A DNA stretch of 64,000 bases, taken from sequence record PX645697.1. One strand, given 5' to 3'. The first letter of the stretch is position 1; every line of letters begins with the position of its first letter. The stretch comes from a phage. The notes below the pieces were generated by a model, which did no database searches, was not told where the DNA came from, and saw nothing but the letters and a program-made list of their open reading frames with translations. Shown here piece by piece: positions 49,900-56,935 of this stretch. Made by a program: the position numbers and the translations under genes.

Positions 49900-50052
49900 T
49901 TACTCCTGTTGTTTACACTCGTCAATAACCCACTGATAAGTGGATTGCCCAGAAAAGAAACACTGAATAAATCCAGATGTTCTCTGCGTTACCAGTGCTA
50001 GTGCACAAATCACTACCGCTGCTGCTAGCAGTTTTAAATCTAATTTAGACAT
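49900..50052 (-). CDS. small membrane protein, 50 aa (not in track)
   Basis: Hand translation MSKLDLKLLAAAVVICALALVTQRTSGFIQCFFSGQSTYQWVIDECKQQE; stop 2 nt before next ATG. Confidence 0.4.
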   Translation of the reverse strand: MSKLDLKLLAAAVVICALALVTQRTSGFIQCFFSGQSTYQWVIDECKQQE

Positions 50053-50166
50053 ATTTCCTCTCATTGAATTTAAAAAAGGACTCTCCTAAAAGAGCCAAGC
50101 TTTAAATCCAAAAAAAGATATTACCCAATATCTGTGGATAACCTGCTCTTAAAATATCTATCCGAC

Positions 50167-50281
50167 GGATGTTCGAGGATTATTCCTCTCCCTAGCATCG
50201 GCCCCATACGGGAAATATATTAAGATTAGGTTAGTTGAGCCAGAATAGCTCACATAGCCCTCTGATACTCACAAGGGCTAT
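50167..50281 (-). repeat. conserved 3' element, copy A (GGATGTTCGAG, CTCTCCCTAGC blocks and 8-bp-stem hairpin ATAGCCCT/AGGGCTAT)
   Basis: Hairpin begins 5 nt after stop of gene 50287..50538; element repeated at 55248-55348. Confidence 0.5.
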
Positions 50282-50286
50282 AGATG

Positions 50287-50538
50287 TTACTCTGTGGCTC
50301 CGTCGAAGCGGAGGATTGCTGTTGGAACAGGAATCACAACCATATCAATCTCTAAACGGAAGAGATGACCCGTACTTAGCTGAACTGCTGTTACCGGTTT
50401 AGCGATACCACCAACAGATGCTGAGGGGATTCGAATAAAGAAATCCCCCGGATATTCCGTTGCACGAAATACATCTCCCGGTGACATATCCTTTACTTGG
50501 ATAATTGATTCAGGAGGGGTTTTATTAGCAATTTGCAT
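50287..50538 (-). CDS. small protein, early-region paralog family
   Basis: ...VKDMSPGDVFRATEYPGDFFIRI... Confidence 0.4.
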   Translation of the reverse strand: MQIANKTPPESIIQVKDMSPGDVFRATEYPGDFFIRIPSASVGGIAKPVTAVQLSTGHLFRLEIDMVVIPVPTAILRFDGATE

Positions 50539-50771
50539 TACAGACCTTTCTTAGCACGATCTTTGGCAGTTTTACCAGTGCGGATGCGATGGGAAACGTT
50601 AACCAGAGTGCCACCGTCAACCACGGTAACGCTCTTGTTTTTAGCCAGATCGAACACAGTCTTCTCTGTGCCACCCAAGCGAATTTGCTTAGGTTCACTG
50701 AAGGTTTGGGTTGATTTGGATTGGAACTGGAACGGTTGACGGATTGCATCAATTGCACTTACTTTAGACAT
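50538..50771 (-). CDS. hypothetical protein
   Basis: Track ORF; stop overlaps next start (TAATG). Confidence 0.4.
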   Translation of the reverse strand: MSKVSAIDAIRQPFQFQSKSTQTFSEPKQIRLGGTEKTVFDLAKNKSVTVVDGGTLVNVSHRIRTGKTAKDRAKKGL

Positions 50772-51005
50772 AGGGGAAATTCCTTAAAAAGTCATGGCTG
50801 CGTAGAGGGAATTCCCTACGCAAATTGGGCCGCCCACAGAGAGGCGTCATAGTACTAAAAGGAGGAGAGAAGAGGGCTTATTTAGCTACCTTTTTCTGTC
50901 CGTTTACAAACCAGATGATTGAACCATCAGGCTGCCGTTGACCGAAGCCTTTCATGTTGGTCATTTCTTCTGTAGAATCATTAAATGTGATCACTTGTTT
51001 TCCTA

Positions 51006-51218
51006 TTAACAGGCGTAGTTACGTAGGTATACATGCTGATCTCTCAGCACCTCACCAAGAAAAGATTTGTAATCTTCTGTTATGCCAGAATAAAACTTCT
51101 CTTTAGCTTCTCCTTCGGACACTTTCCACAACTTAGAAAGCTGATTGAACAATACTTCCTCAGAGGAGAATAGTAGGTATGCATTCTGGATGAGTATATC
51201 TTTCTCTTCTTGAGTCAT
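51006..51218 (-). CDS. hypothetical protein
   Basis: Track ORF. Confidence 0.35.
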   Translation of the reverse strand: MTQEEKDILIQNAYLLFSSEEVLFNQLSKLWKVSEGEAKEKFYSGITEDYKSFLGEVLRDQHVYLRNYAC

Positions 51219-51227
51219 AGAACACCC

Positions 51228-51473
51228 TTACATTGGAGTTAAGATGATCTCTGCTTTGGTATACTTCACACCAACTTCAAGAGTGTCAGCAACGGGACGA
51301 GGAACGCCTGTCCCAAGACAAACAGCTCTTCGATACCCTCCAGTCACAGGCATCATCAAATAGATGATCTGATTATCATCTTCTTTTAAAGTAAAGATGT
51401 CAGCGACTGATAAGTCTTTAACAAAGAGTTTCTTTTCTTCTTTGTGACGGACCTTGATATGTATTGTGCTCAT
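51228..51473 (-). CDS. small protein, early-region paralog family
   Basis: ...VKDLSVADIFTLKEDDNQIIYLM... Confidence 0.4.
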   Translation of the reverse strand: MSTIHIKVRHKEEKKLFVKDLSVADIFTLKEDDNQIIYLMMPVTGGYRRAVCLGTGVPRPVADTLEVGVKYTKAEIILTPM

Positions 51474-51475
51474 AC

Positions 51476-51721
51476 CTACTCCTGAACCACAGACATACGA
51501 ATCATTTCCACCGGAGTGTCACCCTTCATAACACCCAGCACACCAGTCAGTAGGTTAACTGTAGTAATCCAACCCTCTTCTACAGAGATCTTGTTGGACA
51601 CATTATTAACACGCATGTAATACTGAGGTGATGCTGTACCCCGCTGAACTACGAAAGGGTTTCCGGGGATGATAGTATCCAGCGGATGTGTGTTATCTTT
51701 GACCTTGGGGATAATTTTCAT
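51476..51721 (-). CDS. small protein, possible family member
   Basis: Track ORF. Confidence 0.35.
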   Translation of the reverse strand: MKIIPKVKDNTHPLDTIIPGNPFVVQRGTASPQYYMRVNNVSNKISVEEGWITTVNLLTGVLGVMKGDTPVEMIRMSVVQE

Positions 51722-51729
51722 CTTGATTC

Positions 51730-52041
51730 CTATTTAAGTTTAAGGCTGATATTAAGGTGCATACACGCCCTATTCTGTACAGCGGCATAACTTCTACCGA
51801 GTATGTCGGCCATTCTCTGAATAGGCATGAACCCAGCGTTACGAATAACAAACTGATCTTCTTCTTCTGTCCACTTGACACGAACAGTAGCTCTTGATAT
51901 ATCGAACTTGGTACAGGCTGTGTTAACAGCATTCTCCGTTACATTCATAATCTGAGCAACTTCTTGAACCGAGTACTCTTTGATTAGTCTCCGAAGATTT
52001 TCAATCTGCATCGGAGTCCATATAGTTCTTCGTGCTTTCAT
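51730..52041 (-). CDS. tandem HTH-like protein, putative transcription regulator
   Basis: Two repeats WTPMQIENLRRLIKEYSVQEVAQIMNVTENAVNT / WTEEEDQFVIRNAGFMPIQRMADILGRSYAAVQNRA. Confidence 0.35.
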   Translation of the reverse strand: MKARRTIWTPMQIENLRRLIKEYSVQEVAQIMNVTENAVNTACTKFDISRATVRVKWTEEEDQFVIRNAGFMPIQRMADILGRSYAAVQNRACMHLNISLKLK

Positions 52042-52593
52042 ACATCCTCCAATTAATTGTTAAAACTATCAGGGGAGCACACTAGCTCTGGGCCACGCTG
52101 TAGACATCGGCCTACCTTCCACAGCTAATCAGCTAATGTACTCTCCTAATAGTTTATGAATAGGGGGAGGGGACGAATCCTCCCTTATCCTATTAATTAG
52201 TGTTGCATGTAAGATCTAACAATCGGTTGCCTTTGTAGGAATAAGCGTAAAGCTAATCCAGCACTAAACTCCCGCCCCCTTAGTGGGCTGGGTTATTAAA
52301 GGGTAACGCCCTTATGGGCTAGTTACGTGAATGTTAGTTTGATAGGAGATCTGAAGTCCTATCTCAAAGGACTCTCGTAAGAATCCTTCACGATAGTCAC
52401 GCTTTGAGCGTGGTACAGATTAATGTTGCATGACGTTGATTATATAACTCAAAATATCGAGGCTTTCTCCAATCTCGATCTCTCATAAAGGATTGTAGGA
52501 TGAAATGTCTATCACATCCCAGCCATTCCGATACATCTATAGCTAACCTGATTGGAGACCCTCTAAACTCTCTTCGCTCCACACTAACCTCTA

Positions 52594-52767
52594 TTAGCAA
52601 GACTCATCACAAGGTTGATCACCACATGTTTTACAAATCACGGGTGAATAACTACAGGCAGGATACACTGACACACCATCAAACGTCTCACACCCACAAT
52701 CAGGGCATGTACCGTTGGATTCCATGTCATCATCATCATATACTTCACCGCCACCATAACAGCTCAT
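52594..52767 (-). CDS. small Cys-rich zinc-ribbon protein, 57 aa (not in track)
   Basis: Hand translation MSCYGGGEVYDDDDMESNGTCPDCGCETFDGVSVYPACSYSPVICKTCGDQPCDESC; AAGGAG 6 nt upstream. Confidence 0.45.
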   Translation of the reverse strand: MSCYGGGEVYDDDDMESNGTCPDCGCETFDGVSVYPACSYSPVICKTCGDQPCDESC

Positions 52768-52776
52768 ATGAACTCC

Positions 52777-52998
52777 TTAGTAAACTAAACCTATAGCCTT
52801 TGCATCAGGCTGAGGGACTACTTTTGCACTAGGGCGATAGCCATCCACTGAGCCATTCCAAAGATTGACACAGGTGATATACCCATCGTTCAAGTAGTCT
52901 GTTTTAATCCAGAAGTGTTTATCGTGACCAAAAATACTTCCGTTTGGCAGTGTGGACAGTTCAACAGTTTTAAGTGACTGCTTAGAGTCTAGTTTCAT
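52777..52998 (-). CDS. small protein, early-region paralog family
   Basis: ...STLPNGSIFGHDKHFWIKTD... Confidence 0.4.
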   Translation of the reverse strand: MKLDSKQSLKTVELSTLPNGSIFGHDKHFWIKTDYLNDGYITCVNLWNGSVDGYRPSAKVVPQPDAKAIGLVY

Positions 52999-53005
52999 AA
53001 TAACC

Positions 53006-53254
53006 TCAATTATCGTAGCATGTATTCCAATACATGTAGTTAACGTACGTTCTCGGTTTGATTCCGTACATGATGAAGTGAGTCTTCTTGATCCTTTCCT
53101 TCAGCGTGTAATAAAGGCCATCACTGAAGTTACCAACCTTTACTTGGAAGCGTAAGGAGCGAGCATCCATTCGAAGCATGGAAATTAGCTGTACCCTACT
53201 ACCTCCAGCCATCTCTTCAAGAAGCTTCTTTGTATTCCAATAATGAGCTGTCAT
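53006..53254 (-). CDS. hypothetical protein
   Basis: Track ORF. Confidence 0.35.
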   Translation of the reverse strand: MTAHYWNTKKLLEEMAGGSRVQLISMLRMDARSLRFQVKVGNFSDGLYYTLKERIKKTHFIMYGIKPRTYVNYMYWNTCYDN

Positions 53255-53255
53255 A

Positions 53256-53543
53256 TTACCACTCCTTACCGGTTGTTGTTACAGAACCACCACACCACTG
53301 CGCATCGGATAAGGTTTTAGTCTCCTCATCTACTGCTGCACCATTCAGGCATGAGATACCACTGTAACGCATATCAATTTCACCAGAAGGAACCTTCTCG
53401 CCCTTATGCCAGCGAGATACGCAAACACCTTCCACTGCTACTGCACACCATCCATCAGGACGGCTCTGTACGCAGCCTGTAAGGGCTATGCAGACGATGA
53501 AGATACAGATTAAGGATATTACACCACCCCAACTCATAACCAC
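53256..53543 (-). CDS. lipoprotein candidate
   Basis: Signal-like N-terminus ending in lipobox ALTGC. Confidence 0.4.
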   Translation of the reverse strand: MVMSWGGVISLICIFIVCIALTGCVQSRPDGWCAVAVEGVCVSRWHKGEKVPSGEIDMRYSGISCLNGAAVDEETKTLSDAQWCGGSVTTTGKEW

Positions 53544-53642
53544 CTCTCATTCAATTTGGCGCACCGTGGAGGATTCTAACCTCCAACCAATTTCTTAGAA
53601 GGAAACTGCTCTATACAATTGAGCTAACGGCGCTGGATTTGT

Positions 53643-53957
53643 TTACAAGGAGAAGGACTTCTTGCAATCTTTCTCTTCAAAAGTGTAGTAGCCCGTTGCA
53701 TCAGGGAAGTAGGCATACTTTATTTCTTTGCCATCTACAGCCATGATACGATTACCAGAGGTCGTTTCAACAAACAGAAGCCCATCTCTTACCATACCGT
53801 GAGCTTCTTTAATATCAGTTAAGCTGTGTTCTTTAAGGACACATTGCTGGACACTCTGATACTTAACCCCAATCTCTGCACTGTTAACAGAGACAATACC
53901 AATGGTTGTCATCAGCATCAAGGTTGATATGATAAAATGCTTCTGCTTCACGTTCAC
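53643..53957 (-). CDS. secreted/periplasmic protein candidate
   Basis: N-terminal signal-like segment FIISTLMLMTTIGIVSVNSA. Confidence 0.4.
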   Translation of the reverse strand: MNVKQKHFIISTLMLMTTIGIVSVNSAEIGVKYQSVQQCVLKEHSLTDIKEAHGMVRDGLLFVETTSGNRIMAVDGKEIKYAYFPDATGYYTFEEKDCKKSFSL

Positions 53958-53964
53958 CTCTTAT

Positions 53965-54174
53965 TTAACTGAAAATATGCAAGGCCACATCATGACCGAT
54001 ATGACCGGGAACTTTATGCTGTTCTATTTTCAAACAGAGTTTACAGACACGAGATACACGAGACTCTTTCGCTTCAACTGGAGTGTCTGTAGCGTGAGTG
54101 ATATGTAGGTTTTCAGTGATCACCCACTCGTGTTTACATCCAGAATCTTCGGGCTTTTTCTTACGAAAGAACAT
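53965..54174 (-). CDS. hypothetical small protein
   Basis: Track ORF. Confidence 0.3.
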   Translation of the reverse strand: MFFRKKKPEDSGCKHEWVITENLHITHATDTPVEAKESRVSRVCKLCLKIEQHKVPGHIGHDVALHIFS

Positions 54175-54182
54175 AACACCCC

Positions 54183-54344
54183 TTAGATTATGTCACGATG
54201 ACTAACTTCACCACACACCTTACACTGGATAATGTAACGTGTGCCCTTGTCATTGTTTCCATCTGAATCTGTATAGACCAGAGGGCGAGTATTAATAATC
54301 TTCCAATCATGACAATGAAAGACACGCTTTAGCCACTTGAACAT
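54183..54344 (-). CDS. small zinc-ribbon protein
   Basis: Track ORF trimmed to ATG 54344; HCHDW...CKVCG. Confidence 0.3.
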   Translation of the reverse strand: MFKWLKRVFHCHDWKIINTRPLVYTDSDGNNDKGTRYIIQCKVCGEVSHRDII

Positions 54345-54351
54345 ATTAACC

Positions 54352-54603
54352 TCAAGCACAAGCAGGGAGAGTGATGATTTTATACTTGCCTTCAAACTCT
54401 CCAAATAAACCCAAGAATGTAGGACTGTAAGTACCAGTACAAACAAACTCATCAAACAGTGCGTTATAGCTAGGCTTAATCTTCCAAGCCCATACATAAC
54501 CCATCTTGTCAATTGCAATGTAACGAGTGTTCAGAGGAACAGTCATCATCACATCATCAACTTCGATCACTTTAGTGATTGGTGCAGCTTGGAAGTTTTT
54601 CAT
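54352..54603 (-). CDS. hypothetical protein
   Basis: Track ORF; start overlaps stop of upstream small gene. Confidence 0.4.
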   Translation of the reverse strand: MKNFQAAPITKVIEVDDVMMTVPLNTRYIAIDKMGYVWAWKIKPSYNALFDEFVCTGTYSPTFLGLFGEFEGKYKIITLPACA

Positions 54604-54776
54604 ACTTTACCTTTAATAAAAATGTCATTACCACAGACACAGCATGAACGAACAACAGTAGCGCCACGCTGAACGATGCGAACCTCTTCTTTAACCAGAT
54701 TGACACGAGCACCACAGCAAGGAGAGTTGACATAAGAGTAACCGGCTTGTGTATTCTTGATTGTTTGCTTAGACAT
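54600..54776 (-). CDS. small zinc-ribbon protein, 58 aa (not in track)
   Basis: Hand translation MSKQTIKNTQAGYSYVNSPCCGARVNLVKEEVRIVQRGATVVRSCCVCGNDIFIKGKV; stop TGA overlaps next ATG. Confidence 0.45.
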   Translation of the reverse strand: MSKQTIKNTQAGYSYVNSPCCGARVNLVKEEVRIVQRGATVVRSCCVCGNDIFIKGKV

Positions 54777-54820
54777 TTGAGCTTCCTCTTGTTAGTTTAA
54801 GTAAGAGCTGTCCCTTAATT

Positions 54821-54849
54821 AAAACAACAAAGGCCACCCGAAGGCAGCC
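54821..54849 (-). terminator. rho-independent terminator
   Basis: Minus-strand GGCUGCC-uucg-GGUGGCC (two G-U pairs) followed by UUUGUUGUUUU. Confidence 0.45.
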
Positions 54850-55247
54850 CTTTATTAAATCAGTTATTGTAAACCCAACCACCTTGACGTTTACGGATGT
54901 TACCCATCAGACGCAGCATGGCAGATTCAATCTTCAGAGCACCATTTGTTACTGCATCCATACGTTCAGGGCGGTTCATACGTTTGGTTGATACTTTCAT
55001 ACACATCTCTCTTTGTTAGTGGAGGCATTATTGCCAGTTGATATAAGGGATAGCCCTAGTCAGGAGGCTAATTCTGACCGCGCACTCATTGCCGACCTTC
55101 TCTGCCTAAGAGTTCAGGTTCTAGAGCTATCTCTTATCCCAACTGGTGAAGACTCCCTACCCCTAGGAAGTCTCCTGAATCCCAAACCAATATGTACCCC
55201 TACATATCGGAAATCTTTCGAAAATTAACAGGTTTTAGTCTAGCACC

Positions 55248-55348
55248 GGATGTTCGAGCAAGCTCTCCCTAGCGGTGTGGCATATGCCTGAATTAATAAG
55301 TTAATGAGGAACACCCTCACATAGCCCTCTGATAAACACAAGGGCTAT
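55248..55348 (-). repeat. conserved 3' element, copy B
   Basis: Same three blocks and ATAGCCCT/AGGGCTAT hairpin, ending 9 nt after stop of gene 55358..55576. Confidence 0.5.
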
Positions 55349-55357
55349 AAGTCGGTG

Positions 55358-55576
55358 TTACTTTTGAGTCACATGAAGATCAGGGCGAGGTGTAACAGTG
55401 GTGCCACCCTTAAAAAGACCAACATAACCAGTACGAAGATTGGCTGCTTTATGTGAACCATTATTTGCTACCTCTTCAAGCAGCAACCAGAACCGGCTAT
55501 CATAAAAGAAAACCGACCCACTTTCTAGATCACATATTTTTGAAAACTTAAGAGGTTTACCTTCATTGATTTCCAT
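55358..55576 (-). CDS. small protein, early-region paralog family
   Basis: ...ICDLESGSVFFYDSRFWLLLEE... Confidence 0.4.
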   Translation of the reverse strand: MEINEGKPLKFSKICDLESGSVFFYDSRFWLLLEEVANNGSHKAANLRTGYVGLFKGGTTVTPRPDLHVTQK

Positions 55577-55834
55577 TTACTTACCTTTATTAGTAATAAC
55601 AACATCATGAAGCACAACAGCAGGGAGGTTGGAGTTGAGTTTCATAACCTGATTGGTATTTAAACTCAGAACCGTGCACCCTTCATCGCGAGGCTTAGTC
55701 TCTGTCACATGTGGTGTGAAGAGTTGTACAATCATGTAATAATCGATACATGTTGACTTTACTTGGAACACATCACCAAGTTTCAAATCACCTACACACA
55801 ACTTATTAACCTTAGGATTAAGATCAATCTTCAT
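55577..55834 (-). CDS. small protein, early-region paralog family
   Basis: ...VGDLKLGDVFQVKSTCIDYYMIV... Confidence 0.4.
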   Translation of the reverse strand: MKIDLNPKVNKLCVGDLKLGDVFQVKSTCIDYYMIVQLFTPHVTETKPRDEGCTVLSLNTNQVMKLNSNLPAVVLHDVVITNKGK

Positions 55835-56084
55835 CTTTAGCCTCGATGTTAGTTATGTGGAGATCGTTGCGCACTTGGCAGACTTCATCACGATTAATAG
55901 GGATGAGTTTTCCAGTGACTACATCAACGCAGTTCACATAATTATCTGCATATAAAGAATCGGTTCGAATATAAAGGAACCCTTTAGACTCAAAGAGAAC
56001 CCCCGGCTTCATGTTATTTAAGCGAAGCATTGTACGGTTAGGTTTAATATTAACCTTCACTGTTAATCTCCTGCTGCTTAGCAA
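55824..56084 (-). CDS. small protein, early-region paralog family
   Basis: ...LNNMKPGVLFESKGFLYIRTD... Confidence 0.4.
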   Translation of the reverse strand: MLSSRRLTVKVNIKPNRTMLRLNNMKPGVLFESKGFLYIRTDSLYADNYVNCVDVVTGKLIPINRDEVCQVRNDLHITNIEAKDED

Positions 56085-56346
56085 TAGCTACTCGCAAGTC
56101 TTCATTAGCACGAGCAAGGCGCAACACTTCGTGGTTGAGGCTCTGAAGACGTTTGTTTCTGTCCTCAACTTGCATAATAAGATCGTTAAGAATCACTTTA
56201 ACTTTCTCATTATACATCTCATCCACTCGGACTAGGGATTTATACATTCTCTCCCAGCTTGCTGCTTTGTTTCTTAGAATAATAAATCCTATAACGCTGA
56301 TAGTTAAACAGCTTACAAAAAGGAATTTATATACTTCTAAAGTCAT
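56050..56346 (-). CDS. membrane protein with N-terminal TM and coiled coil
   Basis: FLFVSCLTISVIGFIIL followed by charged helical region. Confidence 0.35.
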   Translation of the reverse strand: MTLEVYKFLFVSCLTISVIGFIILRNKAASWERMYKSLVRVDEMYNEKVKVILNDLIMQVEDRNKRLQSLNHEVLRLARANEDLRVAIAKQQEINSEG

Positions 56347-56545
56347 ATTATTTACCCTTTATCAGAGATTAAAAGTAATATTATTTAAGTAAGTTATATT
56401 TAGTAAACTTATTTTCTAAGAAATTTTCAAAGGGTCTATATACAGAGCATTACCCATAGTCCCAGAATACTACCATCTTTTTCAATAAATTTACTAAGTG
56501 GTTGGTTTATAAAGGAATTTAGTTTGTCAAATCTGGCACTAGTGA

Positions 56546-56935
56546 CTATTCCCTAGAGCTATTATCGAACACTAAATCACCACAATACATAGGATTGGCA
56601 TACCATTTTGGCACCCCTTCGCTCTTACTCTGAAAGTAAGTCCCACTATACAGCGGAACATAATTCTTCTTAAGGGCACGTTTAGCCAGCCGCTCGCTTT
56701 CTCCAATGGCTTGCTTAGTCATTGGATTTTTATCACGAATCAGCTTTACATAACGTTTATAAGGTTTCTCCTGTTTTAATAGTACCGGAATCCACTCAAA
56801 CTGGTTCTTTTGTCTTATCACCTGTTCAGCGGTCAGTTTTCGTTGGGCCATTCTATTTATCACGGTATCCGCAACTAAAGCTTTACATGCGGTTGGCTGG
56901 TTCCCTGCCTCATAATAAATAGTCAATGTCAACAT
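56546..56935 (-). CDS. cell-wall hydrolase, SleB/CwlJ-like
   Basis: TIYYEAGNQPTACKALVADTVINRMAQ...QFEWIP resembles the SleB-type hydrolase core. Confidence 0.45.
   Translation of the reverse strand: MLTLTIYYEAGNQPTACKALVADTVINRMAQRKLTAEQVIRQKNQFEWIPVLLKQEKPYKRYVKLIRDKNPMTKQAIGESERLAKRALKKNYVPLYSGTYFQSKSEGVPKWYANPMYCGDLVFDNSSRE

Follow-up and report, generated by a model that had tools for sequence, protein, structure and literature searches.

Seven small early genes of a phiEco32-like coliphage belong to one protein family. The reading we favour, with a probability of about 0.5, is that these anciently diverged paralogs encode small non-toxic early binders, each with a host target of its own. 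They are located in the window, meaning the whole 64,000-nucleotide stretch of phage sequence (PX645697.1) that was analysed; the phage is a Kuravirus (podophage). The initial annotation had listed six of them as dispersed paralogs. All six ORFs were found where it had placed them, apart from the start of F, but its list lacked a seventh member, B2 (Table 1). The genes form three tightly packed sub-clusters (F-E-D; C; B2-B plus A). They are real genes: each start is preceded by a Shine-Dalgarno sequence, and dN/dS against orthologs is 0.06-0.42. For F, the earlier start at TTG 56084 is probably wrong. The GTG codon given in Table 1 follows an AGGAG Shine-Dalgarno, F read from it matches phi32_115 and phrog_16423 end to end, and the phiEco32 annotation of the ortholog is 237 nt long. 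Scanning the region for sigma-70 promoters gave 22 sites against 21.4 in shuffled sequence, and no internal promoters were called.

Table 1. Family members and stem-loops in the window, with E-values for the PHROG match, for the HMM built from the other six members (leave-one-out) and for the HMM built from external representatives.
Feature	Position	Strand	Product	Context	PHROG match	Leave-one-out	External HMM	dN/dS
A	50287..50538	-	83 aa, pI 5.2	start overlaps upstream gene's stop by 1 nt	phrog_6570 4e-22 (family of C and D); phrog_12612 1e-7 (family of B)	3e-8	6e-16	
B	51228..51473	-	81 aa	divergent ortholog of phi32_95; weakest sequence match of the seven	phrog_12612 6e-38	0.07 (top-ranked)	7e-10	0.11-0.26
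B2	51476..51721	-	81 aa	phi32_96 ortholog; separated by 2 nt from B, which lies downstream; absent from the earlier list	phrog_7431 4e-32	3e-5	3e-15	
C	52777..52998	-	73 aa	ortholog of phi32_104; structure modelled	phrog_6570 8e-33	1.5e-8		0.12-0.34
D	55358..55576	-	72 aa	at phi32_113 position	phrog_6570 1e-16	6e-10		
E	55577..55834	-	85 aa	ortholog of phi32_114; abuts D (0-nt gap)	phrog_9955 2e-38	2e-4	3e-13	
F	55824..56060	-	78 aa from GTG 56060	ortholog of phi32_115; overlaps E by 11 nt	phrog_16423 3e-45 (alignment covers residues 9-86 of the long ORF)			0.06-0.14
Stem-loop copy 1	55316..55349	-		9 nt after D stop, end of F-E-D cluster				
Stem-loop copy 2	50249..50282	-		5 nt after A stop				

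The homology of the seven is secure. The motifs quoted in the initial annotation fall into a single alignment register, L17-x-x-G20-x-x-F23, and the aromatic-rich strand said to follow them is present as Y29-Y30. Proper alignment, named there as the point at which similarity might vanish, gave significant similarity. In pairwise BLASTP against a 14-protein database, C and D are 30% identical over 66 aa (E=7e-10), and the pairs C-F, B2-D and B-E reach E=0.002-0.009. For the leave-one-out test, six members at a time were made into an HMM, which was searched against the 397 window ORFs of at least 40 aa. Each omitted member outranked all other window ORFs (E 6e-10 to 2e-4, with B the weakest at 0.07) and scored above 1000 shuffles of its own sequence. 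The family HMM found no further member among the window ORFs of this size. An HMM from 133 external representatives gave E=2e-19 to 7e-10 for the seven and 0.43 for the next ORF; this test is not fully independent, since a profile of the seven had been used to collect the representatives. That borderline ORF (40635..40820) is not a member but phrog_8591, an ortholog of phi32_78. Each of the seven matches its own PHROG (E 1e-16 to 3e-45), and these profiles cross-hit other members.

The shared motif might otherwise be a chance or compositional resemblance of unrelated small ORFs, and the low identity between the paralogs (13-28%) and the weak E-values of several BLAST pairs would suit such an explanation. 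It is refuted by the tests run: the leave-one-out HMMs, the shuffles, the PHROG cross-hits and two structure models that agree with each other speak against it, and the external-profile HMM leaves a gap of nine orders of magnitude before the next ORF. Together with the alignment, the same lines of evidence, shuffles aside, bear out the proposed paralog family of about 72-86 aa. At the DNA level we found one repeat among the paralogs, a 19-nt two-copy match between C and E (84%), which may be chance. The low paralog identity and the lack of further DNA repeats indicate that the duplications are ancient and not recent.

The seven carry the motif set of the family, which is, in order, L-x-x-G-[DE]-x-F, an aromatic pair with [IM]-[KR]-T, V-[ND]-L-x-T-G and V-x-P; written as L-x-x-G-D-x-F, YY[IM][KR]T, V-N-L-x-T-G and V-x-P, the motifs make up the fixed hydrophobic core and turns. 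In B the strand 5 region is incomplete. Per-column conservation reaches 94% at G20, 99% at F23, 83% at V44, 84% at L46, 93% at G49 and 86% at V60, and the low-entropy positions are nearly all hydrophobic or Gly/turn residues. Entropy is maximal at positions 24-28, 35-42 (with indels) and 50-59. Three loop regions vary in sequence, the strand 3-4 loop varies in length too, and E has an insertion in the loop between strands 3 and 4. The initial annotation had proposed structure prediction, and the AF2 models of C (pLDDT 83.8, five strands, no N-terminal helix) and B (pLDDT 81.1, a barrel with a long N/C-terminal beta-hairpin extension) agree on a small barrel. Both models retrieve the same BFVD family set. 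The predicted fold of the family is a five-stranded SH3-like small beta-barrel, a single domain of about 75 aa.

The statement that no known domain is recognisable is right as far as Pfam, NCBIfam, PADLOC and PDB sequences go, but PHROGs already lists the proteins, distributed over several groups without a known function. Pfam gave no match at E<=1 for the seven ORFs nor at E<=0.05 for 140 family members, and the NCBIfam scan of the seven proteins gave none. The PADLOC anti-phage defence models returned 0 families at E<=0.1, and the family profile found noise only among PDB sequences (at E>0.07, propeller blades of DFPase and NimC), with nothing relevant to known anti-defence proteins of the Acr or Ocr/Ard type. 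The family is spread over at least seven PHROGs (6570, 7431, 7832, 8365, 9955, 12612 and 16423), all labelled 'unknown function', whose phiEco32 members are gp95, 96, 104 and 113-115; distant metagenomic members match up to 8 of the family's PHROGs. PHROGs treats these as separate groups, whereas here they are one superfamily. We found no paper that describes these seven PHROGs as one superfamily, and no Pfam or NCBIfam model of it.

At E<=1e-3 the family has 937 representatives (about 900 clusters at 50% identity), which include at least one repeat-driven false positive. This is P0121 (1315 aa, E=2e-21), a cadherin-repeat protein whose score sums eight weak matches; P0254 (2223 aa) was left out as a member, its repeats being weak and partial (iE 1e-4 to 1e-2). 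N4 gp21 is a member (1e-18), sits among the N4 early/middle genes and shares phrog_7431 with B2 (2e-24). PaP3 ORF.65 (7e-9) and LUZ24 gp7 (3e-11) are members as well, both from early-gene regions. Two-domain tandem fusions occur (each domain iE 1e-9 to 1e-15), and an unrelated SPbeta-like phage contig with a GC content of 32% carries five adjacent family genes (six domains). Judged by these searches, the family is very large, pan-phage and phage-specific, and is not special to the window phage. Its roughly 900 clusters come from phages of Gram-negative and Gram-positive hosts and have no assigned function. Treating them as a single domain family would give an annotation to thousands of phage genes now called 'hypothetical', and would also provide a compact candidate set for partner screens.

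Among close relatives the gene content varies. The copy number is 6-11 across seven related genomes, and in our ortholog census 'alleles' at fixed positions are 42-50% identical. A has no ortholog in phiEco32 or WFI101126 and is thus part of the variable gene content. D is 50% identical to phi32_113 against 99-100% to its counterparts in WFI101126 and Ptacy1479, which looks like an allelic replacement at the phi32_113 position.

The stem-loops behind D and A are copies of a 34-nt repeat, 94% identical to each other, with 2 in the window against 0.02 expected. The one after D folds at -24.5 kcal/mol (z=-4.1) and the one after A at -23.6 kcal/mol (z=-2.8), where the outer stem sequence differs yet pairs. 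The exact core of the stem-loop after D (two 8-nt stem arms, loop unspecified) is found in 5 relatives, and about 55 nt of the alignment are near-invariant there, including where D itself has diverged to 50% protein identity. No U-run lies behind it. It is a candidate 3' mRNA hairpin or RNase III-type site, and this assignment is uncertain.

The gene block corresponds to phi32_91-115 of phiEco32, which falls inside the experimentally defined early cluster (PMC8948821). The corresponding SU10 genes lie within the early CDS 69-125 (PMC4281155). By synteny with phiEco32, the window genes would be transcribed leftward in the early phase that depends on the host RNA polymerase. Minor virion or assembly accessory proteins (decoration, chaperone modules) are a highly improbable alternative. 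SH3-like domains are known in phage structural proteins, and the proteins here are small and stable-looking, but the genes lie in the early cluster and strand, distant from the structural genes. Moreover, the corresponding SU10 CDSs account for 0 of 34 proteins detected in the particle preparation, in which six other early proteins were detected (PMC4281155).

From the predicted fold, the evolutionary pattern and the timing we infer a binding function. Each paralog would be a small non-toxic binder module built on the fixed hydrophobic core and turns, and its variable loops would bind a different host macromolecule in each case. The partner would most likely be a protein, plausibly a defence or takeover target, and phages would gain, lose and swap copies with host change. 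Any small domain would be expected to vary in its loops around a conserved core, and this is not proof of diversified binding. If the proteins were instead host shut-off or growth-inhibiting effectors, they would poison an essential host machine. This seems distinctly improbable. LUZ24 gp7, the sole assayed member, was among 13 early proteins expressed in P. aeruginosa and not one of the four growth inhibitors; it inhibited neither growth nor biofilm formation in its host (PMC4635203). Copy number and identity vary freely among close relatives, unlike those of an essential shut-off factor. The phiEco32 RNA-polymerase regulator gp79, which binds the polymerase clamp, is an all-alpha four-helix protein with an unrelated fold and was ruled out as a relative (PMC12276001).

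A bolder form of the binder reading is a putative 'binder scaffold', in which the mini-barrel loops would be diversified against different host immune or takeover targets and carried as exchangeable arrays. We regard this as speculative and rather unlikely. If it were true, the 6-11 copies found in Gordonclarkvirinae would contribute to the broad, unexplained resistance of this group to defences that include restriction-modification, and the fusions of two domains in tandem would be avidity or dual-target versions. The link to defence is purely contextual: according to the BASEL work, restriction-modification systems are resisted by Gordonclarkvirinae, for which no inhibitors are known (PMC11990801). 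The family has repeatedly expanded to multi-copy arrays in early or accessory regions, and such arrays often mark host-interaction or counter-defence genes. Partner screens are now feasible with the Kuravirus isolates of BASEL (Bas86-93), which can be plated on engineered E. coli K-12.

The T4 GoF/MotB.1/Frd.2 proteins (PMC12152347) resemble the family in being early, non-essential paralogs of a phage that carry an SH3-type barrel of five strands, N-terminal in the T4 proteins, and the nearest PDB neighbours of both include FeoA and the DtxR/IdeR SH3 domains. The T4 proteins have 119-141 aa and an extra C-terminal domain, whereas members of the family studied here consist of the domain alone, once or twice in tandem. 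For this LSm-like T4 family an early tuning of translation, mRNA stability or transcription was proposed. The seven might likewise bind RNA (or DNA) as small regulators akin to KOW, LSm or EF-P domain I, which we hold possible though unlikely. By sequence, the T4 proteins are not the same family (hmmsearch E>1 for all three; GoF hhalign probability 0.3%), and homology to EF-P domain I was ruled out as well (hhalign probability 0.5% when the family profile was aligned with EF-P of E. coli). The Pfam searches at the thresholds above gave no match to KOW (PF00467), EFP_N (PF08207), LSM or FeoA (PF04023), the last standing for DtxR-type SH3 domains. Family members are mostly acidic (median pI 5.3; 86% below 7), the window members carry net charges of -2.4 to +1.7, and there is no conserved basic patch, K/R32 being the sole semi-conserved basic site. 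In addition, the predicted structure of C has no N-terminal Sm helix.

Other small barrels differ from the family too. EF-P/eIF5A domain I and the KOW barrels (uL2 C-terminal domain, Spt5 KOW) have no profile similarity to it. The strand 3-4 loop of EF-P carries the functional modified Lys/Arg (PGKG tip), whereas no conserved basic loop tip of this type was found at the family positions 35-42, which are the most variable and contain indels. There is no sequence relation to the Tudor-like RNA-polymerase-interacting domains (UvrD/PcrA C-terminal domain, CarD, Mfd RID) or to eukaryotic Tudor. The conserved aromatics F23, Y29, Y30 and F54 fall in alignment columns with at least 94% hydrophobic residues, which would suit a place in the core better than one in a Tudor-type exposed aromatic cage. 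The VapX antitoxin of H. influenzae VapXD (PDB 6zn8_F) has no sequence-level match, and the phage genes lack an adjoining toxin partner gene. As early multi-copy host binders, the seven would probably be a familiar kind of phage gene and not a new type of system.

The initial annotation had proposed at least six paralogous ORFs in the right-hand small-gene region, with no known domain. All six were present, and their paralogy was borne out by pairwise BLASTP, leave-one-out HMMs, an external HMM and PHROG cross-hits. A seventh member, B2, the ortholog of phi32_96 of phiEco32, had been overlooked. Member F had been started at TTG 56084; the start is instead GTG 56060, which gives a 78-aa protein with an AGGAG Shine-Dalgarno sequence, matched end to end by phi32_115 and phrog_16423. 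No match to any member was found in Pfam, NCBIfam, PADLOC or PDB sequences.

In BLASTP against a 14-protein database, C and D were 30% identical over 66 aa (E=7e-10) and other pairs were linked more weakly. For the leave-one-out test, HMMs were built from six members at a time and searched against every window ORF of 40 aa or more, 397 in all. In each run the member left out ranked first among the non-training ORFs (E-values: D 6e-10, C 1.5e-8, A 3e-8, B2 3e-5, F 1e-4, E 2e-4, B 0.07) and scored above 1000 shuffles of its own sequence, while the best non-member was never below E=0.056. An HMM built solely from 133 external representatives recovered exactly seven window ORFs (E=2e-19 to 7e-10; next ORF E=0.43), a test that is not fully independent since it was a profile of these seven that had found the representatives. 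Family members cross-hit each other's PHROG profiles, and control non-members matched only unrelated PHROGs. These tests across the window ORFs therefore define a family of seven members in the window, and chance similarity among the seven is excluded.

Positions of the family members and neighbouring features (window coordinates unless a comparison locus, L011 or L013, is named)
Feature	Position	Strand	Remark
Member A	50287-50538	minus	
Member B	51228-51473	minus	
Member B2	51476-51721	minus	
Member C	52777-52998	minus	
Member D	55358-55576	minus	
Member E	55577-55834	minus	
Member F	55824-56060	minus	
Stem-loop, 34-nt repeated core (TATAGCCCTT...AGAGGGCTAT)	55316-55349	minus	9 nt past D stop
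Second stem-loop copy, 94% identical	50249-50282	minus	5 nt past A stop
103-aa protein	51730-52041	minus	between B2 and C
CxxC ORFs	52594-52767; 54600-54776	minus	57-58 aa
tRNA-Arg (anticodon TCT)	53557-53633	minus	
129-aa protein	56546-56935	minus	phi32_117 ortholog, annotated hypothetical
Amidoligase-type ligase cluster	L011 32292-39596; L013 5443-12000; window ~40-49 kb		

A Shine-Dalgarno-like site precedes every family start, and comparison with orthologs from related phages gives dN/dS values of 0.06-0.42. The genes are tightly spaced: F and E overlap by 11 nt, D adjoins E, and 2 nt separate B2 from B. The duplications are ancient. Window paralogs share 13-28% identity, orthologs across the subfamily are still recognisable (42-100% identical), and the only DNA-level repeat among the paralogs was a 19-nt two-copy match (84%) in C and E, which may be due to chance.

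Structure prediction, proposed in the initial annotation as a check, gave a common barrel for C and B (AlphaFold2). Member C was modelled from a 46-sequence alignment with five beta-strands and a pLDDT of 83.8 (core ~90). For B, the weakest member, pLDDT was 81.1; its model has the barrel of C and, in addition, an N/C-terminal hairpin, and it retrieved the same BFVD proteins as that of C. We regard the family assignment and the predicted fold as secure; the modelled resemblance to known SH3-like families is one of fold only.

Over 140 sequences, the low-entropy positions were M1-K2-I3, L14, L17, G20, V22, F23, Y29, Y30, I/M31, K/R32, T33, C/A43, V44, L46, T48, G49, V60, P62, A66, L68 and I72, nearly all hydrophobic or turn residues. 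Variability was maximal at positions 24-28, 35-42 (where length also varies) and 50-59. The family is mostly acidic (median pI 5.3) and the net charge of the window members is -2.4 to +1.7. The main rival explanation is an RNA-binding, KOW/LSm-like role, to which structural neighbours of the family models and the precedent of T4 GoF (PMC12152347) point. This role is made less likely by the charge of the proteins, which ranges from acidic to neutral, by their having no conserved basic surface, and by the fact that no sequence link exists.

Region 50000-56400 is matched at 80-95% identity by 115 phage records, the best being Escherichia phage vB_EcoP_WFI101126 (Kuravirus, Gordonclarkvirinae), of the phiEco32-like podophages with C3 morphotype. 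GC skew of the window indicates leftward transcription from ~18 kb on, and the family genes sit among densely packed small minus-strand genes equivalent to phi32_91-phi32_116. In phiEco32 this cluster was assigned by experiment to the early class, is read by host sigma-70 RNA polymerase from right-end promoters, and was described as more variable than any other part of the genome and as "likely host takeover" (PMC8948821); in SU10 the early genes are CDS 69-125 (PMC4281155). By synteny, the family genes of the window phage are probably expressed early.

Several other genes lie in or near this block. The tRNA-Arg gene lies inside it, as in phiEco32 and relatives. The 103-aa protein carries Sigma70_r4_2 (E=1e-7), and this helix-turn-helix of sigma-70 region 4 type makes it a candidate early transcription regulator. 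The two CxxC ORFs have paired CxxC motifs in their translations and look like zinc-ribbon mini-proteins; neither gave a Pfam hit. The 129-aa protein matches Pfam Hydrolase_2 (SleB-type cell-wall hydrolase, E=2e-7), unusual within an early cluster. A cluster of amidoligase, COOH-NH2 ligase, glutamine amidotransferase and RimK-like genes is common to Kuraviruses and the unrelated Pseudomonas Bruynogheviruses (PaP3, LUZ24), and in both groups it directly follows, on the downstream side, the early block of small genes in which the family member lies.

The two window copies of the stem-loop differ in their outer-stem sequences yet still pair. About 55 nt around it are essentially invariant 3' of the D ortholog in phiEco32, NJ01, EP335, MN05 and Ptacy1479, four of which have a D protein only ~50% identical. 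The element lacks a U-run and gave no match in Rfam. A hairpin at the mRNA 3' end or of RNase III type is one possible role, a conserved recombination boundary another; in the latter case the element would be comparable to the stem-loop cassettes of T4-type phages.

When 1.84 billion representatives were searched exhaustively with an HMM, 937 proteins scored E<=1e-3. The best 150 of these were mostly stand-alone (67-99 aa), with ~10% two-domain tandem fusions in which both domains were significant. Cultured-phage members include N4 gp21 (E=1e-18), PaP3 ORF.65 (7e-9) and LUZ24 gp7 (3e-11); BFVD neighbours come from phages of Klebsiella, Proteus, Vibrio, Yersinia, Erwinia, Morganella, Serratia and others, and metagenomic contexts comprise an SPbeta-like low-GC phage, a large lytic phage and a protein-primed PolB podovirus. 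Seven Gordonclarkvirinae-type genomes carry 6-11 copies each; the three sub-clusters into which these fall are the same in every genome, and divergent "alleles" occupy fixed positions. An independent expansion is found on an SPbeta-like metagenomic contig (L015 439-2022, GC 32%), where five adjacent family genes, one a two-domain fusion, accompany YorF, YorH, DnaB and integrase; its host is presumably Gram-positive.

The 1315-aa cadherin-repeat protein P0121 (E=2e-21 against the 7-sequence profile) was rejected as an artefact of eight summed weak repeat hits, and full-sequence E-values from this profile therefore need care for repetitive proteins. A giant 2223-aa protein (L014 10001-16672; 126-kb contig, GC 64%) shows four or more matches to L-x-x-GD-x-F, all weak and partial, and its kinship with the family is unproven. 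Its neighbours on either side are a NUDIX protein of 1396 aa and a Zeta-toxin protein of 649 aa, the kind of setting in which "polyvalent" conflict proteins of mobile elements typically occur. Public labels of family members are misleading: the 72-aa NJ01_132 (L003 1479-1697) is a "putative two-domain glycosyltransferase", the 77-aa A0A7L4XW47 of phage EcoN5 (BFVD neighbour of C, E=1.5e-4) an "Endolysin", and further tiny BFVD neighbours "DNA helicase".

N4 gp21 and the Kuravirus family genes were not the subject of any paper that we found. LUZ24 gp7 was among 13 early proteins expressed single-copy in P. aeruginosa and fell outside the four that inhibited growth or biofilm formation (PMC4635203); a toxin role is unlikely. 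So is a role in the virion: none of the family orthologs of SU10 was found in a particle preparation that contained six other early proteins (PMC4281155). Our preferred reading, to which we give a probability of roughly 0.4-0.5, is that the fixed barrel would serve as the scaffold of small, non-toxic early binder modules, whose variable loops would recognise targets specific to each paralog and which would evolve through gain, loss and exchange of copies.

Apparently undescribed are the union of at least seven PHROGs in one superfamily, its very large size in phages of Gram-negative and Gram-positive hosts without a Pfam model, and its recurrent multi-copy arrays. The window genes themselves are orthologs of deposited hypothetical proteins, within existing PHROGs of unknown function. 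The characterised small regulator of phiEco32, gp79, is a four-helix protein and unrelated to the family (PMC12276001). The window genes belong to an already known type, the small SH3-like phage early proteins.
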